Shown here: piece after piece, positions 38,867-60,637 of the stretch | How the letters are laid out: every line of letters starts with the position of its first letter | How positions within the stretch are numbered: the stretch's first letter is position 1 | Origin: Bacteroidota bacterium | Lineage (GTDB): Bacteria; Bacteroidota; Bacteroidia; Bacteroidales; UBA12481 | Length of the DNA: 61,595 bases | Assembly: GCA_034658635.1 (NCBI GenBank) | Contig: JAYEFL010000330.1 | Span: forward strand, 1 to 61,595 | Direction of reading: 5' to 3' | The notes under the pieces: generated by a model | What the model was told of the DNA's origin: nothing | What the model saw: only the letters and a program-made list of their open reading frames with translations | Databases searched by the model: none | Program-made: the position numbers and the translations under genes

Positions 38867-39376
38867 TCAGGAATGGTCATCCACCCCGTAGATCATTTTC
38901 ATAGAATGTAGAACAGTTGGTAAGATTTCTGTGCAGTATTCACGAACAGCTTTAACGCTACCAGGCAATGCATAAATAAGCATCTGCCCTCTCACTCCTG
39001 CGATACTTCTGGAAATTAAAGCATTAGGCTTCTGCATTCCATATTTTACCCGGATCATTTCCATGATTCCGGGTATTTCTTTATCCAGTAACTCGCGTAT
39101 AACATCCGGAGTAAAGTCCTTAGGTCCGATGCCTGTACCTCCAGTTGTAAATAAGACGTGAATACTTTTGTCACTACTATCCTGCACAAGCATACTCAAT
39201 TGAACAGGATCATCGGGAATCAGGAGGTTTCTTATCTCGATATCAAGCTGTTTTTCACTAAAATAATCAGTACAAAGTCGACTTATTTCCGGGCCACTCA
39301 AATCTTCATACTCACCCTTACTGGCTCTGTCAGAAAGTGTAATGACTCCAATTTTCAAAATATCCGGCAAGCTCAT
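38867..39376 (-). CDS. mog: Molybdopterin adenylyltransferase MogA/MoaB family
   Basis: 169 aa. IGVITLSDRAS... and TTGGTGIGPKDFTPD are MoCF_biosynth-domain motifs. Confidence 0.8.
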   Translation of the reverse strand: MSLPDILKIGVITLSDRASKGEYEDLSGPEISRLCTDYFSEKQLDIEIRNLLIPDDPVQLSMLVQDSSDKSIHVLFTTGGTGIGPKDFTPDVIRELLDKEIPGIMEMIRVKYGMQKPNALISRSIAGVRGQMLIYALPGSVKAVREYCTEILPTVLHSMKMIYGVDDHS

Positions 39377-39869: not shown

Positions 39870-40670
39870 CTATCCACCAATCCCATAGAAGCTACCCTCA
39901 GGATTCAGTCCGCCTTGTTTAGGCTTTTTCTGTAATGCCTCCAGAATCGCTTTTTTCGGACCAAGTTCTCTGACCGAATAGCCACGGGTGCTGAACAGGC
40001 ATGGTTTTATCAGTCCATTGCTGGTTAATCTGAGACGGTTACAGCTGGAACAGTTTCCGCCTTCACCTCCTTCTACTGGCTGAAAATATCCCTTCTCGAG
40101 ATCCATCATGTGAATAAATCTCACCTCATAAGCATTTTTACCGGCAAAATCTCTAACCATACGTGCATCCGGTTCATCTGATGAACTGGTAATAACACAG
40201 TTTAGTTTAATGGGATTCAGTCCTGCTTTTTCTGCAGCTTTCAATCCGGCAAAAACCTCATTTATATCTCCTCCACGTGTAATCTCAGCGTACTTATCAG
40301 GATCCAAGGTATCCAGACTGACATTAACGCGGTGAAGTCCGGCATCTTTCAGATCCCGGGCATATTTTGTCAGGTACGTTGCATTGCTTGTCATGGCAAG
40401 GTCTTTGATCCCATTAATCCCTGAAATCATTGACACTAAATTCACGATACCCTTACGAACCAATGGTTCCCCTCCAGTTATCCTGACTTTATCTACTCCG
40501 AGATCAACAGCCACCCGAACCACTTCTACAATTTCATCAAAACTGAGAATATCTGTATGTGAAAGCGGAACTACTCCTTCTGCAGGCATGCAGTAAACGC
40601 AGCGGAGATTACATCTGTCAGTAACAGATATTCTGAGGTAATTAATTCTTCTGTTATATCTGTCGAACAT
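39870..40670 (-). CDS. moaA: GTP 3',8-cyclase MoaA (radical SAM), compact 266-aa form
   Basis: YLRISVTDRCNLRCVYC radical-SAM cluster, C-terminal auxiliary cluster CSSCNRLRLTSNGLIKPC, and a terminal IGG. Confidence 0.88.
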   Translation of the reverse strand: MFDRYNRRINYLRISVTDRCNLRCVYCMPAEGVVPLSHTDILSFDEIVEVVRVAVDLGVDKVRITGGEPLVRKGIVNLVSMISGINGIKDLAMTSNATYLTKYARDLKDAGLHRVNVSLDTLDPDKYAEITRGGDINEVFAGLKAAEKAGLNPIKLNCVITSSSDEPDARMVRDFAGKNAYEVRFIHMMDLEKGYFQPVEGGEGGNCSSCNRLRLTSNGLIKPCLFSTRGYSVRELGPKKAILEALQKKPKQGGLNPEGSFYGIGG

Positions 40671-47110: not shown

Positions 47111-49519
47111 CTAATTCTCAATATTATAGCTTATCCTGAATCTGCCCGGATCATTAAAAACAATTTGCTGCTTATCAGATGTGCTCACTGATCCATCTGG
47201 TCCTGTTATTGTCTCAAGCTGAGTTGGTTTAAGAAGCTGTGGCACCCAAATAATCTCTGTATCTTTCGGAATCAAAAGATCAAATACAATTTTTGAAGAG
47301 CTTCTCGACCAGGATAAAGAAATCTCCTTTCCAGCAATATTCCGGCTAACGGAGAACTTATCCAGTCCAACAACCGGTGCAGGGTGAAGCATCAAACGTG
47401 CAAATCCACCATCAACCGGATCAATCCCACCAATCCATTTATGAAACCAGGTGGAAACTCCACCAAACATCGGATGGTTCTGCGAATATGTATTATCGCT
47501 TTCTTTCCAGGTTTCCCAGAGAGTAGTGGCATCGTTTTCTATCATATGCCTCCAACCTGGGAAATCTTTGCGTGAGACCATATCAAATGCTTGCTGAACA
47601 TATCCGTATCGTGATAAAACCTCAAGGAGCCAGGGAGTCCCAAAGATTCCGGTTGTTAACTGATTATTCCGATTAATAAGATCATCTGTCAACATTTTTA
47701 GTGCTCGTGGCTGGTCTTCATCTGCCAAAATGTTGTTATACAACATAGTTGCCAACCAAGTTTGTTTGTTCTCAAAATTAACCACAGGCTGGTTCCACAA
47801 TGAGTCTCTCATGATGATCTGGATGTTATCAGCATAATTCCTGTACTTTTTTTCAGAAGGAGAGTCTGATAAAATTGCTGCGAATTTCTGCATAGTACGT
47901 AGTGAGGTATAATAATACGCGGTACCTATCAATTCAACAGGAACAGGGATTAGGCTCTCATGGTCACTCAACCCTTCCCTAACCAGATCCATGCCATGAA
48001 TACCGATAGCTTTCTCTATCCATTGTTGATTATATGAATACCATTCTCTCAGTAGGTCCACATCTCCATAAAATTTAAAAAGCCATTCCTGAAGCATCAG
48101 AAAGTTTGATTCCCAGGCAATCCCACAATAGTTTATACCAACATTGGGAGCAGTATCAACAAATTTCCCATCTCTCATTGCATCCTTCCAGTCTCTCAAA
48201 AACTTGATAAAGATGTTCTTCATATCATAGTTATACAGCCAGGCTTCGGCATTGGCACTCATATCACCTCCATAGCCAAATTTCTCTCTGGCGGGACAAT
48301 CAGAGGCAACGCTAAAAATATTCGAAGTAAAAGTCCATTCAACCATCTCCTGAATTTGGTTCAGCCATTCAAGATCAGATTCAACAACACCAATTTTATT
48401 AAGGTCTGTACCCACTCTGAAAGCGATAAAGTCCTCTTTGCTTACACCAATATTATCCGATTCAGGATTTCTGGTCATTTCAACATATCTGAATCCGTGG
48501 AAAGTATATCTGGGTTCGAAATATTCTTGATTTTCAGAAGGAACAAAAACATCAAGCTGCTCAGCAATAGCCGGAGCACCAGGTCCACCAACGCCAGCGC
48601 GTTTTATCTGTCCGCACACTGCTGTCAGAGTATTAACTGTACTATCTGGCCAGATTCGCTCACCAAATCTGAACCGTATGGTATCTCCAGAATCTGTCTG
48701 ACCTTCATAACGTATCCATCCTGCCATATTTTGCCCAAAATCAATAGTCCATTTCCCCGGTTCATTTTGCCAGATCGCCTTGGGCTTCAAGCTCGTTGTC
48801 TTTCTGATAGGAGGAAAATCTTCTTCAAGCAAATCTCCGCCCGGAGATGATGTCACTTCAACAAAGTCCCACGAAGAATCATCAAATTTGGAAAGTTTCC
48901 ATCCGATTGGTTCAGCACTGTAATCGTGGAATTCACCCAGAAAAATACTATTTCGCCTAATTGCACCCTGACTTGATTTCCAACTGCCATCTGAAATAAT
49001 CTGAATCTCTCCTTTTTGTTCTGCATCGATTATCATGCTGGCAAGAACTCTTGGTTTCCCAACTGGTAAACGTTCTCGTAAATTTAAGTGGCCCCACATT
49101 CTCAGGGGCAAAGGATTATACCAACCATTTCCAAGTTCAATTCCTACCACATTCGCCCCCTTGTGAAGATAATCTGACACATCAAATTTCTGATAATAAA
49201 TCCTTTTAGAGTAGTCTGTCCAGGCGGGAGCCAATTCCTGATCGCTAATCCTTTCACCATTGATCCAAACAGTGTAATAGCCGGCAGCGGTAATCCATAA
49301 ACCAGCAGTTGATGGCATTCGTTTTAAGACAAACTCCTTCCTTAGCAAAGGAGCAGGATTATCCAGGTAAAACAAGGAATCTGATTCTGGTAAAGGATCA
49401 TTATCTGAGATCCATAATGCATCAGCAAATGGATCATGATTCAGGTTTAAGCTTTCATCTGTGGTAGAACAAGCTGAAAAAACAACTGTGAAGAAAAGCA
49501 AAATCAAAAAACGGATCAT
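47111..49519 (-). CDS. Alpha-L-rhamnosidase (GH78), lipoprotein
   Basis: Lipobox VVFSACS from ATG 49519. GH78 N-terminal block WITAAGYYTVWINGERISDQELAPAWTDYSKRIYYQKFDVSDYL..GANVVGIELGNGWY. About 800 aa. Confidence 0.78.
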   Translation of the reverse strand: MIRFLILLFFTVVFSACSTTDESLNLNHDPFADALWISDNDPLPESDSLFYLDNPAPLLRKEFVLKRMPSTAGLWITAAGYYTVWINGERISDQELAPAWTDYSKRIYYQKFDVSDYLHKGANVVGIELGNGWYNPLPLRMWGHLNLRERLPVGKPRVLASMIIDAEQKGEIQIISDGSWKSSQGAIRRNSIFLGEFHDYSAEPIGWKLSKFDDSSWDFVEVTSSPGGDLLEEDFPPIRKTTSLKPKAIWQNEPGKWTIDFGQNMAGWIRYEGQTDSGDTIRFRFGERIWPDSTVNTLTAVCGQIKRAGVGGPGAPAIAEQLDVFVPSENQEYFEPRYTFHGFRYVEMTRNPESDNIGVSKEDFIAFRVGTDLNKIGVVESDLEWLNQIQEMVEWTFTSNIFSVASDCPAREKFGYGGDMSANAEAWLYNYDMKNIFIKFLRDWKDAMRDGKFVDTAPNVGINYCGIAWESNFLMLQEWLFKFYGDVDLLREWYSYNQQWIEKAIGIHGMDLVREGLSDHESLIPVPVELIGTAYYYTSLRTMQKFAAILSDSPSEKKYRNYADNIQIIMRDSLWNQPVVNFENKQTWLATMLYNNILADEDQPRALKMLTDDLINRNNQLTTGIFGTPWLLEVLSRYGYVQQAFDMVSRKDFPGWRHMIENDATTLWETWKESDNTYSQNHPMFGGVSTWFHKWIGGIDPVDGGFARLMLHPAPVVGLDKFSVSRNIAGKEISLSWSRSSSKIVFDLLIPKDTEIIWVPQLLKPTQLETITGPDGSVSTSDKQQIVFNDPGRFRISYNIEN

Positions 49520-49624
49520 AGCAATAGAATAAAGATTAATAATCAGCTTATAAATATACTGAATTCCCCTTGTGATACTCAACTGATTCTATTGTCTGAT
49601 TCCTTTCCAAGGTTTATTAACTGC

Positions 49625-49680: not shown

Positions 49681-51831
49681 TTATTGATATGGTTTAACAA
49701 CCTCTAAGATTTCCGGTAAATCCATTCCTATTTTCTTAAGAAACTCGATTTTAGGAACTCCGTTTGAATTCCATCCACGACGTTCATAAACAGCATCCAG
49801 AAGTTTTTCATACTGCTCCTCACGAAACTTACGCAAGGCCTGATGTTTTTCGACTACGGTCATTTTTTCTGTATCCAGACCCAGATTCTCCCTTAATTGC
49901 TTATCATAACGCTCTATACGGCTCTCAAATTCTTCAAGAGTCACAGGTCCTGCAGCACGGAAAGGCTGAGCATCATGCTTTCTTGTTCCATATCCTCTTC
50001 TCAGGTTAAAGACTCTCTGGAAGTTGTATATACGCTCTGAATCCTCAATCATTCTGACATTGTCAAATTCCTTGCCAGTGACTGATTTATAGAGTGTGAC
50101 ATAATTATCCACGTGTTCAGGCACTTTTGCAGGTTCGTCGGTTTCAGCATTGTTTGATGGTTCAACATCATTCCAGGGCAATTTGCACAATCCAACCAGT
50201 CCGAACCAGGTACGGAACATAGGAAAATAATGTAAGGCCTCGGCTTTATCGGCAAAAGAAGGAATCTGATTATTCACCATGTCCATGAAAATCAACCAGG
50301 CTTCATCATGCTGAGGTCCTTTGTTTGTCATTGCAAAACCACCTTGTTGTGCCAAAGACTCTTTGGAAACATATTCTGAATACTCAAGGCCTTTATTTTC
50401 CATTCCGATATCCTGGAGGAAGTTTGGATCTCCTCCATATTCATTAGCAAAGATCTCTTTCATTTTCCTGATTCCATAACCGGCAATCTTCCCAAAGCCC
50501 TCACCCCGGGCACATTGATGAAGTAACTCAATAGCAGCTTCAGCATTTCCAAAATTCAGCTCCAGTCCACCCGTAATCTCCTTATTGATGATTCCTGCTT
50601 CGTAGCACTCCATAACAAATGCTAATAAGGTTCCCCAGGAGATTGTATCCATTCCATAGGTGTCGCAGTAAAAGTTTGCTTCAATAATGTAATACGGATC
50701 AAAGATTCCACAATTGGATCCCAATCCGGCAGCATTCTCATATTCCGGTCCATCAACAATTACGTCTTCTCCTTTGTATGGGCCTGTTTGAACAATATAA
50801 TTATCAACCCCTTTTGCACATGACATATTACAGCCAATCCAGCAACCATCGGGTGTGCCTTGTGCAAACAGCGATTTCCAAACCTCAGAGTCAATCAATG
50901 GAGCTTTCTCGTCTTTCCCAAATTTATAATTCTTAACAGGTAGCAAATCATAATCGTCCATGATCTCCATAAGGTGAGCAGTACCCTTGGTCTTCATTTC
51001 ACATTGCTCTTCATCAAGCTCACGCATTTCTTTATTAAAGCGCTTACCTCTTTCCATTATAGCCGGAAGATCTACCACATTATTAAGATTTCCCTTAACT
51101 CCGGGAATCTTGCAGACCAATGCTTTTATATGCTTACTTCTGAACACAGTTCCTGTACCACCACGACCAGCCTGCTTCAGACGTACACGTCCTTTTTTCT
51201 TATCATAGAAACTAAAGTTCAGCATTCCAACCCAGGAATGTTCAGCAGCCATTCCGGATGAGACTACAGACACATTCACCTTTTTCCCATCATCAGCGTA
51301 CATTTCGGTTAAGACTTCTGAGAGCTGATGGCTATCCATAGGCTCCAGAGGGGCTTCTTCAATACTCACCTTTCCAGTGGTTCCGTCAATCACGACAATT
51401 ACATCCTTGTCGGCTTTCCCTTGCAATTCAATGGCATCAAAACCAGAGAATTTCACAAAGGGGCCAAAATAACCACCGGCATTGGAATCAGTTACTGATC
51501 CGCTGGCTGGCGACAAAGTAACAACCAATGATTTTCCTGTACCTGAATACTGAGTGATACCACCTATCGGACCTGAGGATATAACTATCTCATTTTCTGC
51601 ATCATCCCACTTGGTTTCAGGAGTAGTAGCATCCCATAACAATCTCATGCCATACCCTTTTCCACCAATGAACTTCTCCTTCATTACGGGATCAACATCT
51701 TTTATCTGTAAAGAATTATCAGAAACATTTACATACAGAATTTTATCTGTATACCCCTTTTCTAATGGTGATACTTCATAGTTAAGCTCACCAAGGACTT
51801 TATGAGCCCCTTTTATTTCCTTGATATCCAT
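49681..51831 (-). CDS. Aldehyde:ferredoxin oxidoreductase family (tungsto/molybdopterin enzyme), long 716-aa form
   Basis: AOR N-terminal domain (...KILYVNVSD...GGKGYGMRLLW...) and Cys cluster GCWIGCNMSC. C-terminal YERRGWNSNGVPK is typical of AOR-family proteins. Confidence 0.88.
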   Translation of the reverse strand: MDIKEIKGAHKVLGELNYEVSPLEKGYTDKILYVNVSDNSLQIKDVDPVMKEKFIGGKGYGMRLLWDATTPETKWDDAENEIVISSGPIGGITQYSGTGKSLVVTLSPASGSVTDSNAGGYFGPFVKFSGFDAIELQGKADKDVIVVIDGTTGKVSIEEAPLEPMDSHQLSEVLTEMYADDGKKVNVSVVSSGMAAEHSWVGMLNFSFYDKKKGRVRLKQAGRGGTGTVFRSKHIKALVCKIPGVKGNLNNVVDLPAIMERGKRFNKEMRELDEEQCEMKTKGTAHLMEIMDDYDLLPVKNYKFGKDEKAPLIDSEVWKSLFAQGTPDGCWIGCNMSCAKGVDNYIVQTGPYKGEDVIVDGPEYENAAGLGSNCGIFDPYYIIEANFYCDTYGMDTISWGTLLAFVMECYEAGIINKEITGGLELNFGNAEAAIELLHQCARGEGFGKIAGYGIRKMKEIFANEYGGDPNFLQDIGMENKGLEYSEYVSKESLAQQGGFAMTNKGPQHDEAWLIFMDMVNNQIPSFADKAEALHYFPMFRTWFGLVGLCKLPWNDVEPSNNAETDEPAKVPEHVDNYVTLYKSVTGKEFDNVRMIEDSERIYNFQRVFNLRRGYGTRKHDAQPFRAAGPVTLEEFESRIERYDKQLRENLGLDTEKMTVVEKHQALRKFREEQYEKLLDAVYERRGWNSNGVPKIEFLKKIGMDLPEILEVVKPYQ

Positions 51832-51909
51832 ATATTTTACCTTAATTATTTTCTATAAACCAAGTAAAACAAAAATATGAAATTATCTCTGGAAACTGGA
51901 GCTAATTAT

Positions 51910-51923
51910 ATGATTTTAATCAT
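51910..51923. promoter_or_regulatory. 14-bp palindrome ATGATTttAATCAT in the AOR / DUF364 divergent intergenic region (candidate operator)
   Basis: Perfect 6-2-6 inverted repeat read from the sequence. It lies 44 nt upstream of the DUF364-like ATG and 79 nt from the AOR ATG. Confidence 0.3.
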
Positions 51924-51966
51924 TATGCATAGGATTACATATCGGTAGAATTCTTACTTTTACCTC

Positions 51967-52665
51967 ATGAAAATATCTGATCCTGTCACCCACTGTTTAC
52001 AAGAATATGGTTACAGCTCTGACCTGATTGAAGAAGTTGTAGTTGGAGACAAGTATCTGGCCTGCCTCCTTAAAAATGGACAGTTGGGTGTATGTGCTAC
52101 CCTGGGGCATGATTTTCCAGAGAACTATTCTTATTTGAGTTTACCTGATTCAAAGAAACTCTGTGACAGAATCCTGCTAAATGCTTATTTTAATGCCTTA
52201 TTGAATTATGACCGGAAGTACACCAGTCATAAAGATATTTATGATTTTATCCACTTTGAAAAGTATAAGCGGATAGTTATGGTTGGATATTTCGCATCAT
52301 TGATTACAAAATTTTATAAAGCTGGGATTCATCTGGATATTTTTGATCTTAATAAACAGCATCCTGATGTCATCCCTATGAACAGTCAGATCGATTTTAT
52401 CTCCAGGGCAGATGCAATGATTTTAACTTCCACTTCATTGTTCAATGGTAGTTTTGCAAGCTTAGTGAAAGTAAGCCGTAAGAATTCAGATATTTTCATG
52501 CTTGGTCCTTCTACGATTCTGAATCCATTCATGTATCAATATCCTAATATCTCAAAGATATTCGGAACAATTTTTCCGCAGAACCAGAAACTCGTAATGA
52601 AAATGATTAAAGAAGGACATGGAACACCTTCTTTTGGAAAACTCGGACACAAAGTATATTTGTAG
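51967..52665 (+). CDS. DUF364/DUF4213-like Rossmann-domain protein (putative metal-chelation family)
   Basis: 232 aa. N-terminal ...VVGDKYLACLLKNGQLGVCATL... and central RIVMVGYF...DIFDL resemble the DUF4213+DUF364 architecture. Identified from memory, not verified. Confidence 0.5.
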   Translation: MKISDPVTHCLQEYGYSSDLIEEVVVGDKYLACLLKNGQLGVCATLGHDFPENYSYLSLPDSKKLCDRILLNAYFNALLNYDRKYTSHKDIYDFIHFEKYKRIVMVGYFASLITKFYKAGIHLDIFDLNKQHPDVIPMNSQIDFISRADAMILTSTSLFNGSFASLVKVSRKNSDIFMLGPSTILNPFMYQYPNISKIFGTIFPQNQKLVMKMIKEGHGTPSFGKLGHKVYL

Positions 52666-52666
52666 T

Positions 52667-53251
52667 ATGAACTTTAAGGAAATTCAAAATAAACTCTCTA
52701 AATTTTCTGTAGGTATTGCAGGGGCTGGTGGTCTTGGCAGTAACTGTGCAGTTGCCCTGGTGAGATGCGGAATAGGACATTTGATAATTGCTGATTTTGA
52801 TACTGTTGAACCCGGCAATCTTAACAGACAGTATTATTTCAGGAATCAAATAGGACAATATAAAGTTGATGCTCTGAAGGAAAATCTTTTGAGAATTAAC
52901 CCGGATCTTAAGATTGATATTCACAAAAATAAGCTTGACAGTAAATCCCTTATCAGCACTTTCAATAATGTTCATGTGCTGGTGGAAGCGTTTGATCACG
53001 CAAAACAAAAAGAAATGGTAGTAGAAACTGCACTTGAAGCATGGCCTGACCGACCCTTGGTTATGGGAATTGGCATGGCAGGTTTTGGTAAAACTGAAAT
53101 TCTAAAGATCTATGTTTCCGGGAATCTGTATATTTGTGGTGATGGGACTGAAGAAATTGGTCCTAATAATCCACCGATTGCACCCAGAGTTGGAATTGTA
53201 GCTAATATGCAGGCAGATAAGACTGTGGAGTTGCTTCTGGGGATTGGTTGA
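52667..53251 (+). CDS. thiF: ThiF/MoeB-type E1-like adenylyltransferase, short family-2 ThiF form
   Basis: VGIAGAGGLGSNCAVALVRCGIGHLIIADFDTVEPGNLNRQ nucleotide-binding block. 194 aa from ATG 52667, 1 nt after the upstream stop. Confidence 0.8.
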   Translation: MNFKEIQNKLSKFSVGIAGAGGLGSNCAVALVRCGIGHLIIADFDTVEPGNLNRQYYFRNQIGQYKVDALKENLLRINPDLKIDIHKNKLDSKSLISTFNNVHVLVEAFDHAKQKEMVVETALEAWPDRPLVMGIGMAGFGKTEILKIYVSGNLYICGDGTEEIGPNNPPIAPRVGIVANMQADKTVELLLGIG

Positions 53252-53311
53252 TTGGGGGATTGATTGATTGGTTACTTTGGGGATTGGTTTAATAAGAAAT
53301 AAGTTATTTTT

Positions 53312-54448
53312 ATGAAAGTTCGATTGCTTCCTTTTGTTTTACTATTATCACTTTTAATTAGCTCTTGTTCTACTGGCAAGAAGTCTCTTCAGAAAGGGAA
53401 TTATGCTGATGCAGTTTTTAAATCTGTTGAAAGGCTTCGGTCAAATCCGGATAGTAAAAATGCCACATCTACCTTGAAGAATGCATATCCTTTAGCAGTT
53501 CAAACACTGGAAATTGAAATCGAAGAACTTCTGGGGACAAATGATGCTAATAAATATGTTTTTGTTGCTGAAAAGTATCAGATTCTTGACAATATGGCTA
53601 AAGATATCCGAAGGAGTCCTGCAGCTATGAAAATCATCTCTAATCCAAAAACCTATACCAGTCAGTTAACAGCTGCAAAAGACAAAGCAGCAGAAGAAGC
53701 TTATCAAAATGGTCGGGATTTGATGGACAAGAATACGCGCGAGGAATCACGAGAGGCCTTTTATGCCTTCCAAACCTGCCTTAATTATAATCCGAATTAC
53801 AAAGATGCAAGACGATTATTGGATATTGCCAGGGAAAGAGCTACCCTAAAAGTACTTGTAGAACAAATTCCGGTACCAGGCAGATATAAATTAAGTTCAG
53901 GTTTTTTCTATGATCAGATTCTAAGCTACCTGAATTCATCCCGCCCGAATGAATTTATTAGCTTCATGACTCCCAAAGAGGCAAAGAAGTACTCAGATAT
54001 TGATCATTTCATGCAAATGGAATTTTTTGATTTCCAGGTTGGGGCCAGCAAGGAAAACCACAAAGAAAAGGAATACACATCAAGAGATTCTGTCAAAGTC
54101 GGCTCAGCTACTATAGATGGGAAAAAAGTGGATGTTTTCAACAAGGTTAAAGCCAGCCTTACCACTCATAAGAGAGAAGTGAGTTCATCCGGCGTATTAC
54201 AAATCAGGATTATTGATGCTTACTCAAATAAAATTCTCGAACAGAGAAAACTTCCTGGATCTTTTGTTTGGAAAACAGAGTGGGCAACTTATAATGGTGA
54301 TAAAAGAGCCCTAAGTAAAGTACAATTGGAATTGTGCAAAAGGAAACCGGCATCCGCTCCGGCGCCACAAGACTTATTTCTTGAATTCACAAAGCCTATT
54401 TTCGATCAGACAAAAAACTATTTAAGAAACTTCTACCGCAGATATTAA
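53312..54448 (+). CDS. Lipoprotein of unknown function
   Basis: 378 aa with lipobox LLISSCS. The N-terminal half is helical. No recognisable catalytic motif. Confidence 0.55.
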   Translation: MKVRLLPFVLLLSLLISSCSTGKKSLQKGNYADAVFKSVERLRSNPDSKNATSTLKNAYPLAVQTLEIEIEELLGTNDANKYVFVAEKYQILDNMAKDIRRSPAAMKIISNPKTYTSQLTAAKDKAAEEAYQNGRDLMDKNTREESREAFYAFQTCLNYNPNYKDARRLLDIARERATLKVLVEQIPVPGRYKLSSGFFYDQILSYLNSSRPNEFISFMTPKEAKKYSDIDHFMQMEFFDFQVGASKENHKEKEYTSRDSVKVGSATIDGKKVDVFNKVKASLTTHKREVSSSGVLQIRIIDAYSNKILEQRKLPGSFVWKTEWATYNGDKRALSKVQLELCKRKPASAPAPQDLFLEFTKPIFDQTKNYLRNFYRRY

Positions 54449-54449
54449 A

Positions 54450-54653
54450 ATGAAATTAGTTTTAAATAACCGGGATGAGGTCTTTGATGGCAATCAACAT
54501 ACTGTTAGTGAGATTTTTAAAATCATGAACTTCACTTTTCCAAGAGTTGTCGTTAAATTGAACGGAAAACTAATTAAAAAGCCTCAATATCACGAAACCA
54601 TTGTTAACGATGGAGATAATCTTGAAGTCATTCACCTGATAAGTGGAGGCTAG
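54450..54653 (+). CDS. thiS: ThiS/MoaD-family sulfur-carrier protein (ubiquitin-like, C-terminal GG)
   Basis: 67 aa ending ...VIHLISGG. The start is 1 nt after the upstream stop. Confidence 0.75.
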   Translation: MKLVLNNRDEVFDGNQHTVSEIFKIMNFTFPRVVVKLNGKLIKKPQYHETIVNDGDNLEVIHLISGG

Positions 54654-54687
54654 GATTTAACGCTTTCATACTGATCCGGTCTTCACG

Positions 54688-54736
54688 GTGCTGCATTTCA
54701 CGATTACTACACGTTGGAATGCAGCACTTTTATTTT
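54688..54736 (+). terminator. Intrinsic terminator after thiS
   Basis: 10-bp stem GTGCTGCATT/AATGCAGCAC (54688-54727) followed by TTTTATTTT. The ATG at 54719 of the ORF-track sigma ORF lies inside the stem. Confidence 0.6.
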
Positions 54737-54751
54737 ATCTACGTCTTGCTT

Positions 54752-55309
54752 ATGAACATGAATAATACACAAACAAAAATAATTGTTCATCAGGATCTTC
54801 TGAACCGATGCCGTTGGGGTGACCAACAAGCTCAAACAGAGATTTATAATCTATACTACAAAGCAATGTACAACACCAGTCTGTATATCACCAAAAACGA
54901 AGCAGAAGCTGAAGACATCATGCAGGAAGCTTTCCTGAAAGCCTTCAAGCTTTTACAAAGCGTTAAAGTGGAATCAGGATTTGGTGGCTGGCTGAAGAAA
55001 ATAGTAATAAACAAATCATTAGATGCAGTCAGAAAACAGAAATATCATTTTGATCATGTTGATGAGATAAAAGATAATACTGTTGATTCTGGAACATTTG
55101 AAGAAACAGGAGAAAGTATCAGTGATAAAATTGCAAAAATTAAAAGAGCAATGAGCCAGTTACCTGAGAAATACCGTGTTGTACTATCAATGAACCTTCT
55201 TGAAGGTTTTGATCACGATGAGATCAGTTCAATACTGGGAATTACTGCATCAACAAGTAGAGCACAATTATCAAGAGGAAAACAGAAATTATTACAACTA
55301 TTAAACTAA
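54752..55309 (+). CDS. ECF-type RNA polymerase sigma-70 family factor
   Basis: Region 2 (...AEDIMQEAFLKAF...WLKKIVINKSLD) and region 4 HTH (DEISSILGITASTSRAQLSRGKQKL). The start is moved to ATG 54752. Confidence 0.85.
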   Translation: MNMNNTQTKIIVHQDLLNRCRWGDQQAQTEIYNLYYKAMYNTSLYITKNEAEAEDIMQEAFLKAFKLLQSVKVESGFGGWLKKIVINKSLDAVRKQKYHFDHVDEIKDNTVDSGTFEETGESISDKIAKIKRAMSQLPEKYRVVLSMNLLEGFDHDEISSILGITASTSRAQLSRGKQKLLQLLN

Positions 55310-55312
55310 GCA

Positions 55313-55885
55313 ATGGAAGCATTAGAAAAAATCATGAGAGAAAACAGTGCTGAATTCCTCAACCAGGAACCATCTGCGGGGCATTTTGAGCGATTTGATC
55401 AAAAACTGGCCAGGCAAAACAGAAATGGCAGAATAATTCATATGTCAAAGAAAATCAGTCGGATTGCTGCGATCGGTCTATTAGTACTGATGTCATCTAT
55501 GTGGGCATTCAATGAGTTTTCACAATCCAGACAACAATCAGTGAAGCTTGGAGATATCAGCCAGGAGTACCAGGATGTTGAATTTTTCTTTACCAGCCAG
55601 ATAGACTCCAGATATCAGGATATACAGAATTGCCAGATTCTTGAAGATGAAGAGTATAAATCCTCCCTTTTAGAAGAAATTAACCAAATGGATTCAATCT
55701 ATGATAATCTGCAAAAAGAATTGGGAGCCAACCCGAATAATGAAAGGGTTATACAGGCAATGATACGCCATTATCAAACAAAACTGAAAATCATGTCTGA
55801 CATCCTTGACAGACTACAAGGAATTCAAAAACTCAATAATTCTCAAATAAAAAATCAAAATCAGTATGAAAGCGTTGAATTGTAA
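55313..55885 (+). CDS. Putative anti-sigma factor (single-pass membrane protein)
   Basis: 190 aa, 3 nt after the sigma gene, with one TM helix (IAAIGLLVLMSSMWAF). Confidence 0.5.
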   Translation: MEALEKIMRENSAEFLNQEPSAGHFERFDQKLARQNRNGRIIHMSKKISRIAAIGLLVLMSSMWAFNEFSQSRQQSVKLGDISQEYQDVEFFFTSQIDSRYQDIQNCQILEDEEYKSSLLEEINQMDSIYDNLQKELGANPNNERVIQAMIRHYQTKLKIMSDILDRLQGIQKLNNSQIKNQNQYESVEL

Positions 55886-56810
55886 ATCTGGCCTCATCTT
55901 TCTGGCTCTATTAATAGCAGGCTCAAGTCTGTTTGCTCAGAAAGTTGAGAAGGACCTCCACAAGGAGTTCAAAACTAACAAATCATCAGTCCTGTCAATG
56001 GACCTAAAATTCTGCGATTTTAATGCAGAAACCTGGAACAAGAACCAGGCTGTGTTTGATGTTCTCATTACCGTTGAACATAATGAAAAAGCAAAGGCTA
56101 AAAAGATTCTTGACATGATCAAGGTAGTAATTGATCAGGATGGAAATGATATTAGCGTTGATGTGAAAATGGACAAGAAATTCAGTAATACAAATTGGGG
56201 AAAATCAAAAAAAATCAAGATTCAAATTGATGCAAAAATTCCGGCACACATCAATTTTGAACTTGAGAACAACTTTGGCTCTGTAACTGTCACTGAACTC
56301 ACCGGTGTTGTTTCCATTGAAAATAATTTTGGTTCTCTGGCAATTGACCGTTTGCTTGGGACAGAGATTGATCTCGAATTAAACTATGGGAGTGCTCGAT
56401 TTACAGAATTGGCCGATGCCAGTGTGGAATTAAATTATGGTTCTATCGATATTAAGACTGCAGCCAATCTTGATCTTGAGCTTAACAATGGAAAATGCAA
56501 TATTGGAAGTCTTAACAACATTGATGCCGAGATAAATATGGGAAGTTTAGAGCTTGGCAAAGTAGCAGCAACTTTTAAGCTTATATCAATTGAGAACAAT
56601 ATGGGTAGTGTTGAAGTAGGAATTGATCGTGATGCCGGTTTTCTGTTCACCGGGGAGATGCAGATGGGAAGCCTGGAATATCCTAAATTGGATAATTTAG
56701 TTAAATCGAAAAGCAAGATGAATCTTTCAGTTAAAGGAACTTATGGGGATGGACGTTCTCTTGTTAATGTTGAAGGCAATATGGGAAGTATTGAAATTCG
56801 ACTAAAATAA
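55866..56810 (+). CDS. Secreted beta-strand repeat protein (DUF4097 / putative adhesin-like)
   Basis: Signal peptide and reiterated N(N/Y/M)GS(L/A/V) strand repeats (NNFGSVTV, NNFGSLAI, LNYGSARF, LNYGSIDI, INMGSLEL, NNMGSVEV, GNMGSIEI). Confidence 0.6.
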   Translation: MKALNCKSGLIFLALLIAGSSLFAQKVEKDLHKEFKTNKSSVLSMDLKFCDFNAETWNKNQAVFDVLITVEHNEKAKAKKILDMIKVVIDQDGNDISVDVKMDKKFSNTNWGKSKKIKIQIDAKIPAHINFELENNFGSVTVTELTGVVSIENNFGSLAIDRLLGTEIDLELNYGSARFTELADASVELNYGSIDIKTAANLDLELNNGKCNIGSLNNIDAEINMGSLELGKVAATFKLISIENNMGSVEVGIDRDAGFLFTGEMQMGSLEYPKLDNLVKSKSKMNLSVKGTYGDGRSLVNVEGNMGSIEIRLK

Positions 56811-56843
56811 TATCAGAGGAACTTATTTGACAACTCCCGGCAC

Positions 56844-56878
56844 AATGGCAGCGGTTACAATAACCGTTGCCATTTTCA
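56844..56878 (+). terminator. Hairpin terminator after the sigma/anti-sigma/DUF4097 unit
   Basis: 13-bp stem AATGGCAGCGGTT/AACCGTTGCCATT (one G-T pair) with a 5-nt loop, running into TTTTCAT. Confidence 0.5.
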
Positions 56879-56955
56879 TGTCGTTGTGATTTAACAAATC
56901 TATGTTTGACTTGTTCCTATTAAAGAGATTGTATTCAGAAATAATAAATAGAACA

Positions 56956-58590
56956 ATGATAAGTATATCACAACCCCCAAAAGCAAAAAACGAACCTGTG
57001 CTTTCGTATGCACCAGGCACTATGGAACGAAAACGTCTCCAGGAGGCGATTACCGAACTAAAGCGACATAAAGTTGAAATCCCTATGATTATTGGTGGGA
57101 AAGCTATCAAATCTGGTGATTTAAAAGAAATCCGAGCCCCTCATGATCATGAGTTACTTCTCGGACACTACCATGAAGGAACCCGGAATGATGTTCGGGA
57201 AGCCATTGAAAATTCTCTAAAGGCACGCGAAAAGTGGGCTAATACAAGCTGGGAGCACCGTGCATCCATTTTTCTGAAAGTCGCCAGTCTTATTGCAGGC
57301 CCTTTCCGTTACAAACTCAATGCAGCAACGATGCTGGCCCAATCAAAAAATGTGATTCAGGCAGAAATTGATGCGGCCTGCGAATCCATTGATTTTTTAA
57401 ATTTCAATGTTGAATTCATGGCTGATATCTATTCTGCTCAGCCTACCTCACTGGAAAACACCTGGAACAGACTGGAACAAAGGCCACTAGAAGGATTTAT
57501 CTTTGCTGTTAGTCCCTTCAATTTCACTTCAATTGCCTTGAACCTTGCAGCCGCACCAGCCCTGATGGGTAATGTGGTGATATGGAAGCCCTCTCCTTCT
57601 CAAATATATTCTGCAAAAGTGATAATGGATATTTATCGTGCTGCAGGACTACCAGACGGAGTGATTAATATGGTTTTTGCCGATGGTGCAGAAGCAGCGG
57701 ATGAAGCAATGTCTCATCCAGAGTTTGCCGGGGTTCACTTTACTGGCAGTACCGAAGTGTTCAAATCCATGTGGACAAAAGTTGGCGAAAACATGAGCAG
57801 ATACCGTTCTTTCCCCAGACTGATTGGAGAAACCGGAGGTAAAGATTATATACTGGCTCATTCTTCTTCACGTGCCATTGAAGTAGCTACTGCCATCTCA
57901 AGAGGAGCTTTCGAATATCAGGGCCAGAAATGCTCGGCTGCCTCACGTGCCTATATACCGTCAAACCTATGGCCTGAAATTGAATGCCACTTGCTTGATG
58001 ATTTAAAGCAATTCAAAATGGGTAGTCCTGAAGATTTCAGCAATTTTATCAATGCAGTAATTCACGAAGGAGCTTTCAATAAATTGACAGGATATATTGA
58101 CCGTGCCAAAAATGATCCGGAGGCTGAAATTATTGCGGGAGGACATTATAACAAAGAACAAGGATTCTTTATCGAGCCTACCGTAATACTGACAAAAGAT
58201 GCAAATTATGTGACCATGCATACCGAATTGTTCGGACCGATAATGACAATATACGTCTACGATCCTGACAAGTTTGAAGCAACCATTGAATTAATAGATA
58301 AAACATCACCATATGGATTAACCGGGGCAATTTTCTCCAGAGATAGGTACTCTATTGAGATGGCAAGCAAAAAACTGGTTAACACTGCTGGTAATTTTTA
58401 CATCAACGATAAACCAACAGGGGCTGTTGTTGGAAATCAGCCCTTCGGCGGATCAAGAGCCTCAGGCACAAACGATAAAGCCGGATCAATGCTGAATCTG
58501 CTCCGCTGGGTTTCACCCCGAACAATCAAAGAGTGCTTTCTTCCACCTTCAGATCACAGTTATCCATTTCTACAGGAGGATTATACCTGA
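56956..58590 (+). CDS. pruA: L-glutamate gamma-semialdehyde (1-pyrroline-5-carboxylate) dehydrogenase
   Basis: 544 aa from ATG 56956. Aldehyde dehydrogenase motifs FTGSTEVF, IGETGGKD and the catalytic-Cys block EYQGQKCSAASR. Confidence 0.85.
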   Translation: MISISQPPKAKNEPVLSYAPGTMERKRLQEAITELKRHKVEIPMIIGGKAIKSGDLKEIRAPHDHELLLGHYHEGTRNDVREAIENSLKAREKWANTSWEHRASIFLKVASLIAGPFRYKLNAATMLAQSKNVIQAEIDAACESIDFLNFNVEFMADIYSAQPTSLENTWNRLEQRPLEGFIFAVSPFNFTSIALNLAAAPALMGNVVIWKPSPSQIYSAKVIMDIYRAAGLPDGVINMVFADGAEAADEAMSHPEFAGVHFTGSTEVFKSMWTKVGENMSRYRSFPRLIGETGGKDYILAHSSSRAIEVATAISRGAFEYQGQKCSAASRAYIPSNLWPEIECHLLDDLKQFKMGSPEDFSNFINAVIHEGAFNKLTGYIDRAKNDPEAEIIAGGHYNKEQGFFIEPTVILTKDANYVTMHTELFGPIMTIYVYDPDKFEATIELIDKTSPYGLTGAIFSRDRYSIEMASKKLVNTAGNFYINDKPTGAVVGNQPFGGSRASGTNDKAGSMLNLLRWVSPRTIKECFLPPSDHSYPFLQEDYT

Positions 58591-58628
58591 AGACAATAAA
58601 ATAGAAATATTGCCCGTACCTTTATGGT

Positions 58629-59933
58629 ATGGGTATTTTTCGTTCACGTAAGAATATTGAACTTAATAGCTGGTATCGACTTGATAATGCGGCTAAAATC
58701 TTTCCGGCCGTCACAAATAAAGTAAGAACCTCAGTATTCAGGTTAAGTGCAGACTTGCATGAACCTGTTAAACTTGAAGCACTACAGAAAGCTCTTGATA
58801 AAACTTTACTTGAACTCCCCTATTTCCGTTCACAATTAAAAAAGGGATTCTTCTGGTATTGGCTGGAGCCCTCAGAAGCTCAGCCACTGATCCAATATGA
58901 CCACGGCACACCTTGTCGGGAATTTAACACGCAACGAAGAAATCATTTGTTAATTCGCGTTCTTGCCAGGGAAAACAAAATTAGCGCTGAATTCATGCAT
59001 ACCCTGACGGATGGAGGAGGAGCATCAAAGTTTTTTCTATCCCTGCTGGGTAATTATGGACAATTTTGCACGTGGGCTCTGGATCCTGAAAGCCAGATTA
59101 TTACCAACGACACATCAAACCAAAAAGACTTAACTGAGGATTCTTACAAAAAGTATTTTCGCAAGCATATCCCAAAACACTTAAAATTACGAAATGCCTA
59201 CCATCTGCCATTGGCAATCAACAGAAAACCTGAATTCAGAACAATAGTTGCTGAGCTATCCACATCGAAAATAATTGCTCTGGCTCATGATAAAAAAATA
59301 TCGCTCACAGAATATCTGGCATCTGTTTACCTGTTTACCTTACAAAAGTTTTATCTGCTCGAATACAATAAAAGACCATTTCCAAGAAAATCTATTCTCA
59401 GAGTGGAAATTCCTGTGAATCTCCGAAAACTATTCCCTTCAAAAACCCTTCGGAACTTCGCCCTGTTTGTTATGCCAGAGATTGATCCACGACTAGGCGC
59501 ATACAGTTTCGATGAAATAACCAGCATTGTTCATCATTATATGCAACTGGAAACCGATCACCGCCAGATTCAAAGAATTATAAGAAGAAATGTAGGAGGA
59601 GAGAAAAACCCGATTATCAGGGTCATCCCACTTGTCTTGAAGATTATGGTTCTTACCCTGATGTTTAAGAATTCCGGACCAAAATTGTACTCTGGAGTTT
59701 TGACTAATCTGGGTCCGGTTAAAATTTCAGCAGATTATTCAAAATTCATAAAAAGATTTCGCTTCATTCCTCCTCCCCCGGATCCCAGTATAAAAGTAAA
59801 CTCCGCACTAATAAGTTACAATGACAGTCTGGTGCTGTGTTTTGGCAATCAATCTTCTTCAACAAAATTCGAGAAAGAGTTTTTGCGTTTCCTTAAGAAT
59901 GAAGGTCTCAAAATAACAATCCTAAATCAATAA
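58629..59933 (+). CDS. Condensation-domain-like acyltransferase (HxxxDG superfamily), unknown substrate
   Basis: 434 aa. N-terminal WYRLDNAAKIFPA and an active-site-like MHTLTDGGG (HxxxDG). Confidence 0.5.
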   Translation: MGIFRSRKNIELNSWYRLDNAAKIFPAVTNKVRTSVFRLSADLHEPVKLEALQKALDKTLLELPYFRSQLKKGFFWYWLEPSEAQPLIQYDHGTPCREFNTQRRNHLLIRVLARENKISAEFMHTLTDGGGASKFFLSLLGNYGQFCTWALDPESQIITNDTSNQKDLTEDSYKKYFRKHIPKHLKLRNAYHLPLAINRKPEFRTIVAELSTSKIIALAHDKKISLTEYLASVYLFTLQKFYLLEYNKRPFPRKSILRVEIPVNLRKLFPSKTLRNFALFVMPEIDPRLGAYSFDEITSIVHHYMQLETDHRQIQRIIRRNVGGEKNPIIRVIPLVLKIMVLTLMFKNSGPKLYSGVLTNLGPVKISADYSKFIKRFRFIPPPPDPSIKVNSALISYNDSLVLCFGNQSSSTKFEKEFLRFLKNEGLKITILNQ

Positions 59934-59935
59934 AC

Positions 59936-60637
59936 ATGCCTATTTGCAAACATTGTGGTGTTGAAATAGAAGCTGAATTTTCACAATGCCCCTTATGTCA
60001 GCGACCTGCAGAAACAGAATTGTCCCAATCCTCTAATATGACATCTGGCTACAACCCAGGTTATTCGCCCCTTTCATCACGGGAAAAAAGCAGACTTTTC
60101 TGGGAATTAACAACAATCCTGCATTTCTCTGCCCTGGTAGTTACTATACTGATTGACATCATCGACAACAAACGCCCAACCTGGTCATTATATGCCATCA
60201 CAAGCATCGCTGCATCTCATATCTTCATCACTTTATTAACATTTACAACAAGAAAATTATGGATTTTTCTGCCCGGATTACTAATCAATACCCTCGGCTT
60301 TCTGGTCCTTATTGATTTGTATGATAATGGGATCAATTGGTTTGTCAATCCGGGACTTCCGCTTGCCGGATTCTTCATTCTACTCCTGGGCAGTGTTATG
60401 GCATATACATTCCGAACCAGCCAAAGAGGATTCAACATCATTGCATCTGCCTCCTTAGCCATTGGTCTCTATTGTATTCTTGCTGAGATATTCATAAAAA
60501 TGGCCAACAACATTGAAGTAACTCTCACCTGGTCAGCTATAGTAGCTGCATCCATTCTGCCATTTGCCCTTCTTCTGTTCTTTTTACATTACCGTTTGAA
60601 AAGAGGGACAAGCCTGCGAAAGTTTTTTCATTTGTAA
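59936..60637 (+). CDS. Zinc-ribbon plus polytopic membrane protein (DUF6320-like)
   Basis: N-terminal CKHCGVEIEAEFSQCPLC (CxxC-x12-CxxC) followed by about 5-6 TM helices. Starts 2 nt after the upstream stop. Confidence 0.5.
   Translation: MPICKHCGVEIEAEFSQCPLCQRPAETELSQSSNMTSGYNPGYSPLSSREKSRLFWELTTILHFSALVVTILIDIIDNKRPTWSLYAITSIAASHIFITLLTFTTRKLWIFLPGLLINTLGFLVLIDLYDNGINWFVNPGLPLAGFFILLLGSVMAYTFRTSQRGFNIIASASLAIGLYCILAEIFIKMANNIEVTLTWSAIVAASILPFALLLFFLHYRLKRGTSLRKFFHL

Follow-up and report, generated by a model that had tools for sequence, protein, structure and literature searches.

A ThiS-type carrier and a short ThiF-type E1 beside a long-form AOR gene in Bacteroidales: a candidate AOR/WOR maturation operon

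Introduction

Genes for ubiquitin-like (Ubl) carrier proteins have been reported beside genes of the AOR family of tungsten enzymes in several organisms. Iyer, Burroughs and Aravind (2006) found MoaD strictly beside AOR, often together with MoeB and apart from the main molybdenum cofactor (Moco) operon, and proposed a dedicated role for it in the tungsten cofactor (PMC1779556). The AOR operon of Aromatoleum aromaticum contains two MoaD-like genes, aorD and aorE (PMC6365974). Deletion of the AOR-adjacent Ubl of Thermococcus kodakarensis (UblC, TK1065) left ~54% of the AOR activity and eliminated that of FOR in medium poor in sulfur (PMC11323500). In a 2026 classification of tungsten oxidoreductases, the ‘ThiS-like’ neighbour of the Class I enzymes is named WorX and is predicted to act in pterin biosynthesis; worX and thiF lie beside the gene for CsWOR87 of Cetobacterium somerae (PMC13328260). 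The locus described here is found on contig JAYEFL010000330.1 (assembly GCA_034658635.1) of a Bacteroidota bacterium of the order Bacteroidales. It comprises genes for a DUF364-family protein, a family-2 ThiF (ThiF2), a lipoprotein and a ThiS-like carrier, which are divergent from a gene of the AOR/WOR family. The whole stretch of 61,595 nucleotides that was analysed is referred to as the window.

Similar to the WorX loci, the cluster combines a single-subunit AOR/WOR large subunit with an adjacent ThiS-like gene and thiF (PMC13328260). The carrier gene lies 2.6 kb from the start of the AOR gene, in a divergent operon with ThiF2 and distinct from the Moco operon. The differences are the DUF364 gene, the embedded lipoprotein gene and the host, an uncultured member of the Bacteroidales without a thiamine pathway. 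The equivalence with WorX is drawn from gene content and the published description, and the function of WorX is itself a prediction. The AOR-linked MoaD/MoeB pairs, aorD/aorE and UblC also represent an extra Ubl carrier by AOR, often with its own E1, besides the housekeeping MoaD. They have been proposed to serve the tungsten cofactor, with partial genetic support in Thermococcus. These carriers are of the MoaD type, whereas the carrier described here falls in a clade on the ThiS side and matches the thiS model only, and its E1 is a short family-2 ThiF rather than MoeB.

The canonical ThiS-ThiF systems of Escherichia coli and Bacillus subtilis (PDB 1zud, 1tyg) share with this locus a beta-grasp carrier ending in GG and an E1 with the same ATP-binding and arginine-finger motifs. 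Their genes are adjacent, as in most of the clusters of the present kind, whereas here the lipoprotein gene lies between them. Unlike the canonical systems, the locus has no ThiG/ThiH/ThiO acceptor, no ThiC/ThiE and no thiamine pyrophosphate (TPP) riboswitch, and its E1 lacks the C-terminal part.

The best explanation, with a probability of roughly 0.6, is that the locus is an AOR/WOR maturation operon, in which a ThiS-type (‘WorX’) carrier and its own short E1 are dedicated to the pterin cofactor of the divergent and apparently co-regulated long-form AOR. A first-pass annotation of the window had put forward a dedicated sulfur-transfer module for this cofactor. The idea is right in outline and is already published as a prediction; the locus is a new Bacteroidales member of the group, with DUF364 as an undescribed add-on.

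Identity of the carrier and its E1

The carrier, with the terminus SGG, matches the thiS model TIGR01683 at 47.2 bits against a cut-off of 37.45. It gives no match to the bacterial moaD model TIGR01682 and only 17 bits to moaD_arch. The same holds for the clusters of relatives, where TIGR01683 is matched by 21 of 21 carriers and the bacterial moaD model by none of them. Among PDB sequences, B. subtilis ThiS (1tyg_B) comes closest, and the solved proteins most similar to the carrier are ThiS of B. subtilis and of Geobacter.

A maximum likelihood tree was built from 31 AOR-linked carriers, seven ThiS from thi operons, ten MoaE-adjacent MoaD and four others. MoaD is split from all other carriers with a support of 100/98, and the AOR-linked carriers lie outside the MoaD clade. 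They are placed on the ThiS side in a long-stemmed clade of their own (100/99), apart from the seven thi-operon ThiS of the order; the alignment has 68 columns only, and the deeper branching order is not settled by the tree. On the choice between ThiS and MoaD posed by the first-pass annotation, the tree places the carriers on the ThiS side, in a clade distinct from that of the thi operons.

The ThiF2 protein matches NF006395 at 243 bits (cut-off 159) and TIGR02354 at 172 bits (cut-off 152). Alignment with 19 homologues favours a start at 52667 over 52619. The motifs GxGGLGS, NLNRQ (arginine finger) and EAFD (aspartate) are invariant in the 20 sequences, and Cys157 is nearly invariant. The C-terminus is ~55 residues short of those of E. 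coli ThiF and MoeB.

Association with AOR across genomes

The proteins of the window were mapped onto 35 fetched loci of relatives, with flanks of ±8 kb. Genome-level searches covered 61 genomes, and an evenly drawn sample of 300 genomes represents the phylum. All of the evidence is comparative, and related genomes are not independent samples.

In four genera of the family, AOR is kept divergent from a row of genes in the order DUF364, ThiF2, lipoprotein, ThiS, extracytoplasmic function (ECF) sigma factor, anti-sigma factor, LiaG-like protein and aldehyde dehydrogenase, of which DUF364 and ThiF2 may be missing. This arrangement is seen again in 22 public contigs of metagenome-assembled genomes (MAGs). 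The AOR protein is 80-95% identical in 20+ relatives, with the accessory genes beside it every time. ThiS is retained in every family cluster examined, and the AOR-ThiS arrangement is conserved in 40+ loci overall. In other families of the order, AOR is divergent from ThiF2-ThiS without the lipoprotein (L098, L104) or from DUF364-ThiF2-ThiS (L018 with L103).

Within the phylum sample (n = 300), family-2 ThiF occurs in three genomes besides the source genome, each time at a distance of 0.4-2.2 kb from a long AOR with 65-72% identity. ThiF2 is immediately followed by ThiS in two of the three, and ThiS by a rhodanese gene in one cluster. In the third genome (G190; L185:7277-9277) AOR and ThiF2 are separated by a HepT-like gene, and a ThiS-like gene is found ~5 kb downstream of ThiF2, past a HicA/HicB pair and other genes. 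The cluster tolerates insertions yet stays together.

AOR is present in 25 of the 27 ThiF2-positive genomes of the 61-genome set, a count from related genomes that is not an independent statistic. ThiF2 lies beside AOR in the fetched locus of 19 of these 27; the others are on short contigs or in unrelated contexts. The first-pass annotation had looked to co-occurrence with AOR to support its idea, and for ThiF2/ThiS the synteny extends over the families and the order and to two further lineages of the phylum, with DUF364 being facultative. The link between ThiF2/ThiS and AOR is robust.

Five clusters have lost ThiF2 (L040, L043, L044, L047 and L048, from G028, G018, G009, G026 and G006, respectively) and still contain DUF364-lipoprotein-ThiS beside AOR. 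Another E1 must activate the carrier in these genomes, presumably the MoeB-like one. A 99%-complete MAG, G037 (L096; contigs C10 and C687), carries two AOR genes, and its ThiF2-ThiS pair adjoins a transposase; MoaC, MoeA and MoaE were not detected in it. Cofactor scavenging, a gap in the binning or decay may account for this pattern.

Thiamine pathway

The source genome is 4.5 Mb in 422 contigs and 96% complete, the window being its contig C330. ThiG, ThiH, ThiC and ThiE were not found in this genome, where the search for ThiG gave just a 22-bit spurious match. ThiG was found in none of 28 genomes of the family, several of which are 99-100% complete. The ten ThiG-positive genomes of the order have no family-2 ThiF above the cut-off; instead, a MoeB-like ThiF adjoins thiG. 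Family-2 ThiF and ThiG never occur together in the 61 genomes (0 of 27 ThiF2-positive genomes with ThiG). No TPP or Moco riboswitch was found at the gathering or the E ≤ 1 threshold. As no match to ThiG, ThiH, ThiC or ThiE was found in the genome, a role of the ThiS/ThiF2 pair as a thiamine module is unlikely. The first-pass annotation had arrived at the same view of the pair, to be given up if the genome encoded thiG/thiH elsewhere while having no further thiS/thiF. No match to thiG or thiH was found, so this check speaks for a role outside thiamine synthesis.

An ordinary thiazole ThiS-ThiF pair could nevertheless be supposed, with the other thi genes in the 4% of the genome that was not assembled, or with the pair as the remnant of a lost thi operon. 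Both proteins exceed the curated ThiS and ThiF cut-offs (NCBIfam ‘equivalog’ names), and the solved structures closest to the carrier, from Bacillus and Geobacter, are ThiS proteins. Against this stand the undetected thi genes and riboswitch, the lack of ThiG throughout the family, the use of a different ThiF by the ThiG-positive genomes and the separation of the carrier clade from thi-operon ThiS. A remnant would also not be expected to persist intact and linked to AOR over a phylum. This explanation is largely refuted and is the least probable of those considered.

Moco pathways

The Moco operon of the window encodes MogA, MoaC, MoaA and MoeA and lies 10 kb from the AOR cluster. The first-pass annotation started from the lack of moaD and moeB functions in this operon. 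This is correct for the operon itself but not for the genome, which has a moaD gene that overlaps moaE on contig C45 and, on contig C286, encodes a MoeB-like E1 of 254 aa. The ThiS/ThiF2 pair is therefore an extra, AOR-associated set and no stand-in for a missing MoaD/MoeB. The MoaA of the window (39870-40670) has 266 aa and a partial match to Mob_synth_C. It is a conserved short form rather than a truncation, since the same length recurs in the Moco operons of relatives.

Among the MoaC-positive genomes of the order (61 genomes searched), MoaE and MOSC are mutually exclusive. The family, together with G043 and G053, has MoaD/MoaE and no MOSC, and the MoaE-positive form has a plain MogA of 169 aa (38867-39376 in the window). 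MoaE was undetected in eight genomes (G029, G031, G033, G041, G050, G051, G059 and G060), all of them MoaC-positive and several 97-100% complete. Its absence was confirmed even at E ≤ 5 in the five that were rechecked (G031, G050, G051, G059 and G060). MOSC was detected in all eight. It is fused to MogA in a protein of 308-311 aa in the two operons scanned with Pfam (G031, G050), and in G059 and G060 a MogA-homologous open reading frame (ORF) of the same size covers the MOSC match.

Five genomes (G031, G033, G041, G050 and G051) have MoaC, MoeA and AOR with no detectable MoaD/MoaE, and the AOR-linked ThiS is the sole carrier of the ThiS/MoaD family found in them. In G051, ThiF2 is the sole E1 found at E ≤ 1e-20. 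It is tentatively suggested, as a possibility of low probability, that ThiS/ThiF2 could supply the sulfur for a route to the pyranopterin dithiolene that does without MoaD/MoaE, or could act in a second, AOR-specific sulfuration step. The first of these would leave unexplained why the source genome, with its MoaD/MoaE, still keeps the pair, which favours an AOR-specific step.

Organization and control of the locus

The four ORFs for DUF364, ThiF2, the lipoprotein and ThiS were verified in the sequence at the positions given by the first-pass annotation (Table 1). The 1-nt gaps from DUF364 to ThiF2 and from the lipoprotein to ThiS are directly visible, and 135 nt separate the DUF364 gene from the divergent AOR gene. 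The hairpin 3′ of thiS has a predicted energy of -22 kcal/mol (z = -5.2) and is followed by the U-tract UUUUAUUUU. As no plus-strand terminator-like site was found in a scan of 51967-54653 and this strong hairpin comes after thiS, the four genes look like a single transcription unit. A G-rich motif, GGGGATTGGTT, is present in three copies at and after the thiF stop codon (53239-53292); no stable RNA structure is predicted for this stretch (z = 0.09).

Table 1. Positions of the features of the AOR-linked locus, and examples of MOSC-MogA genes in relatives without MoaE
Feature	Position	Strand	Evidence
AOR/WOR-family gene	49681..51831	-	AFOR_N 158 bits, AFOR_C 326 bits
Divergent control region	51832..51966	.	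Candidate -7 boxes in both directions and conserved palindrome
DUF364-family protein, 232 aa	51967..52665	+	PF04016, 84 bits
Family-2 ThiF (ThiF2), 194 aa	52667..53251	+	NF006395, TIGR02354
Lipoprotein, 378 aa	53312..54448	+	Lipobox LISSC; no Pfam/NCBIfam match
ThiS-like carrier, 67 aa, C-terminal GG	54450..54653	+	TIGR01683
Predicted intrinsic terminator, closing the DUF364-ThiF-lipoprotein-ThiS unit	54687..54737	+	Hairpin and U-tract
MOSC-MogA examples of MoaE-less relatives	L188:6381-7307, L189:4625-5560

The spacer between the divergent genes contains the palindrome ATGATTttAATCAT at 51910-51923, which keeps its position in 21 of 21 spacers between AOR and the accessory operon in the family. 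In the form ATGATTnnnATCAT, it sits between conserved -7 boxes of the TAnnTTTG type that point each way, and the sequence TATTTTTG at 51870-51877 on the minus strand is a -7 box of this Bacteroidetes type. In the alignment of the spacers (mean identity 53%), three islands are conserved. The palindrome is one of them, with a conserved TATGCAT...CATATCG after it, and it probably serves as the operator of a dimeric regulator. Because it is conserved between the divergent -7 boxes, it indicates that the AOR enzyme and the accessory operon would be under joint control. A sigma-70 promoter scan gave 11 sites against 11.6 expected in shuffled sequence, sigma-70 being the wrong promoter type for Bacteroidota, and counts of TAnnTTTG across the whole window showed no enrichment. 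The conservation alignment of the spacers alone was informative on promoters.

The AOR protein has 716 aa and is of the long, WorL-like form, with both the AFOR_N and the AFOR_C domain. Its best PDB sequence match is the AOR of Pyrococcus furiosus (1aor, 2.8e-49). No gene for an Fe-S or FAD subunit adjoins it. A GH78 rhamnosidase gene lies downstream, and the wider neighbourhood (47111-49582 and 54719-60637) is syntenic throughout the family. The genes after thiS encode an ECF sigma factor, a probable anti-sigma factor of 190 aa, a LiaG/DUF4097-like protein, an aldehyde dehydrogenase of 562 aa and proteins of 434 aa and 233 aa. The presence of a rhamnosidase and of two enzymes that oxidise aldehydes may point to a connection with lactaldehyde derived from rhamnose.

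DUF364 and the lipoprotein

The DUF364 protein exceeds the PF04016 cut-off of 23 bits (Table 1) and reaches 22.3 bits for DUF4213 against a cut-off of 23.5. It belongs to a short, divergent subfamily that scores ~85 bits, whereas another type of DUF364 in the order reaches ~140 bits. Its gene adjoins AOR in genus g1, most of genus g4 and G041; in G051 it lies on a different, short contig. Genera g2 and g3 and some clusters of g4 lack it, and about one third of the family clusters are without it. A role as a substitute for MoaE was considered and rejected, as G031 and G033 have no DUF364 at all.

Published work connects the DUF364 family with transporters of tungstate and molybdate and with a site for a pterin- or flavin-like ligand (PMC2954201), and a member in Methanococcus lies inside a modABC operon (bioRxiv 2024.03.05.583561). 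The sole characterised DUF364 enzyme cyclises a methyl-S-adenosylmethionine (methyl-SAM) (PMC12930334). The protein shares PF04016 over a Rossmann-like domain with Dhaf4260 (PDB 3l5o) and with Orf5, a methyl-azetidine-carboxylate synthase, and the published genome context of the family suggests tungsten and molybdenum handling. It differs from both in belonging to a shorter, divergent subfamily and in having no adjacent transporter. The metal-handling partner proposed in the first-pass annotation is thus plausible from the published context, but it is only facultative. From this context, DUF364 is plausibly an optional helper in the handling of the metal or of a ligand derived from SAM.

The lipoprotein has no match in Pfam or NCBIfam. 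Its AlphaFold (AF2) model, with a pLDDT of 89.9, consists of a helical N-terminal domain resembling tetratricopeptide repeats (TPR) and an alpha/beta C-terminal domain similar to CsgG and HpaA, and Foldseek matches it to HpaA, CsgG and TPR proteins. At least 193 homologues in the protein collection are without a Pfam domain, and the family has 464 loci in GTDB representatives, from Marinifilaceae to Cytophagales. Contexts were compared for 80 of the 464 loci, with flanks of up to 8 kb on each side. The lipoprotein is beside AOR/ThiS only in the 22 closest of these 80 (49-93% identical). No AOR, family-2 ThiF or ThiS occurs in the flanks of the other 58 (42-48% identical), a few of which have a distant ThiF-family match of 27-32%. 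The commonest neighbours in the 58 loci are msrA, an MFS transporter, GH31 and an esterase; in Cytophagales, msrA often directly follows the lipoprotein gene (18 of the 58).

A tungsten-related role for the lipoprotein was rejected, given the 464 loci in Bacteroidota, the 58 compared loci without AOR or ThiS nearby and the TPR and CsgG/HpaA-like fold. The gene is single-copy in the source genome. It is probably a passenger, a general envelope gene whose only copy became embedded between thiF and thiS in the ancestor of one family. The first-pass annotation had called this lipoprotein unexpected. Its gene is indeed tightly coupled to thiS, and this coupling is conserved, but it says little about function. 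The gene is a widespread envelope gene of the Bacteroidota with no tungsten or molybdenum context elsewhere.

Proposed function and alternatives

In the proposed maturation operon, ThiF2, in which the required motifs are observed, would adenylate the C-terminal Gly-Gly of the carrier with ATP. A persulfide donor, such as a cysteine desulfurase or a rhodanese, would then turn the adenylate into a thiocarboxylate. The sulfur would finally be passed to the tungsten or molybdenum pyranopterin cofactor for AOR, either as the dithiolene sulfurs or in a later AOR-specific step of sulfuration or cofactor delivery. DUF364 would be an optional helper, and the lipoprotein an unrelated envelope gene. This explanation is supported because there is no thiamine pathway, the synteny with AOR is conserved, the spacer contains a putative operator, the E1 motifs are intact and the carrier is the only one found in five genomes, and it agrees with the literature. 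The sulfur-transfer module of the first-pass annotation thus stands on conserved synteny and published predictions, and its premise of a missing MoaD/MoeB does not.

Several points weigh against the maturation operon. The genome contains canonical MoaD-MoaE and a MoeB-like E1, and a second carrier for molybdopterin is not obviously needed. The carrier is of the ThiS and not the MoaD type, which leaves its docking to MoaE or AOR hypothetical. Four ThiF2 genes of other families lie in unrelated contexts within ±8 kb. The loss of ThiF2 from five clusters, and of DUF364 from many, means that neither is indispensable. Most of the genomes are fragmented MAGs, and absences are provisional. The whole case is built on gene context, and the function of WorX is a prediction in every organism.

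Apart from the thiamine pair dealt with above, the main live rival is that the carrier acts at AOR directly, by placing a terminal sulfido ligand on the tungsten, or by escorting the cofactor as FdhD does for formate dehydrogenases. The genome already has MoaD, MoaE and MoeB for molybdopterin, and the association tracks the long AOR whichever Moco pathway is present, being found in both MoaE-positive and MoaE-negative genomes. ThiS stays next to AOR even after the loss of ThiF2. A MoaD-AOR fusion has been reported in Azoarcus (PMC1779556), and sulfuration and delivery of the FdhD type provide a precedent (PMC13197769). However, the sulfido ligand and a contact between carrier and AOR would follow from analogy, the published authors favour pterin biosynthesis (PMC13328260), and genomes without MoaD/MoaE still need a carrier for the dithiolene sulfur. 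Direct action at AOR is therefore a possible but distinctly less probable explanation than the maturation operon.

Two further explanations have a much lower probability. ThiF2-ThiS and DUF364 might together make a sulfur-containing chelator of tungstate or molybdate, similar to the thiocarboxylate siderophore systems of pyridine-2,6-dithiocarboxylic acid (PDTC) and thioquinolobactin. Ubl/E1 pairs serve the synthesis of such siderophores (PMC1779556), DUF364 is linked to tungstate/molybdate transport elsewhere (PMC2954201; bioRxiv 2024.03.05.583561) and a SAM derivative is the substrate of the one characterised DUF364 enzyme (PMC12930334). This is unlikely, as DUF364 is missing from many clusters and from G031 and G033 entirely, and the minimal set of AOR, ThiF2 and ThiS includes no ligase, CoA-transferase or JAB peptidase as found in PDTC clusters. 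Still less probable is a ubiquitin-like conjugation of the carrier to AOR or other proteins, comparable with the archaeal SAMPs and the Thermococcus Ubls. In favour of it are the GG terminus of the carrier, its own E1 and weak similarities to SAMP1 and SAMP2, and the Ubls of T. kodakarensis both carry sulfur and are conjugated to proteins (PMC11323500). The SAMP scores are nevertheless far under the cut-off (17.6 vs 60 bits), and no JAB/MPN peptidase or E2-like gene was seen in the clusters examined.

Significance

AOR and WOR enzymes are widespread in anaerobes and gut microbes, while the making and delivery of their tungsten-pterin cofactor are poorly understood. Annotation pipelines will label the genes described here as thiamine ThiS and ThiF in organisms that are apparent thiamine auxotrophs, and metabolic reconstructions of Bacteroidales MAGs would be misled. 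The natural variants of the cluster, with or without ThiF2, DUF364 and MoaD/MoaE, could be used to dissect the role of the carrier. The two kinds of Moco pathway in the order hint at a non-canonical molybdopterin synthase, a possibility raised by the genomes with MOSC-MogA and without MoaE. Should closed genomes confirm these absences, there would be a route to molybdopterin that does without MoaE, with the AOR-linked carrier as its likeliest sulfur donor.

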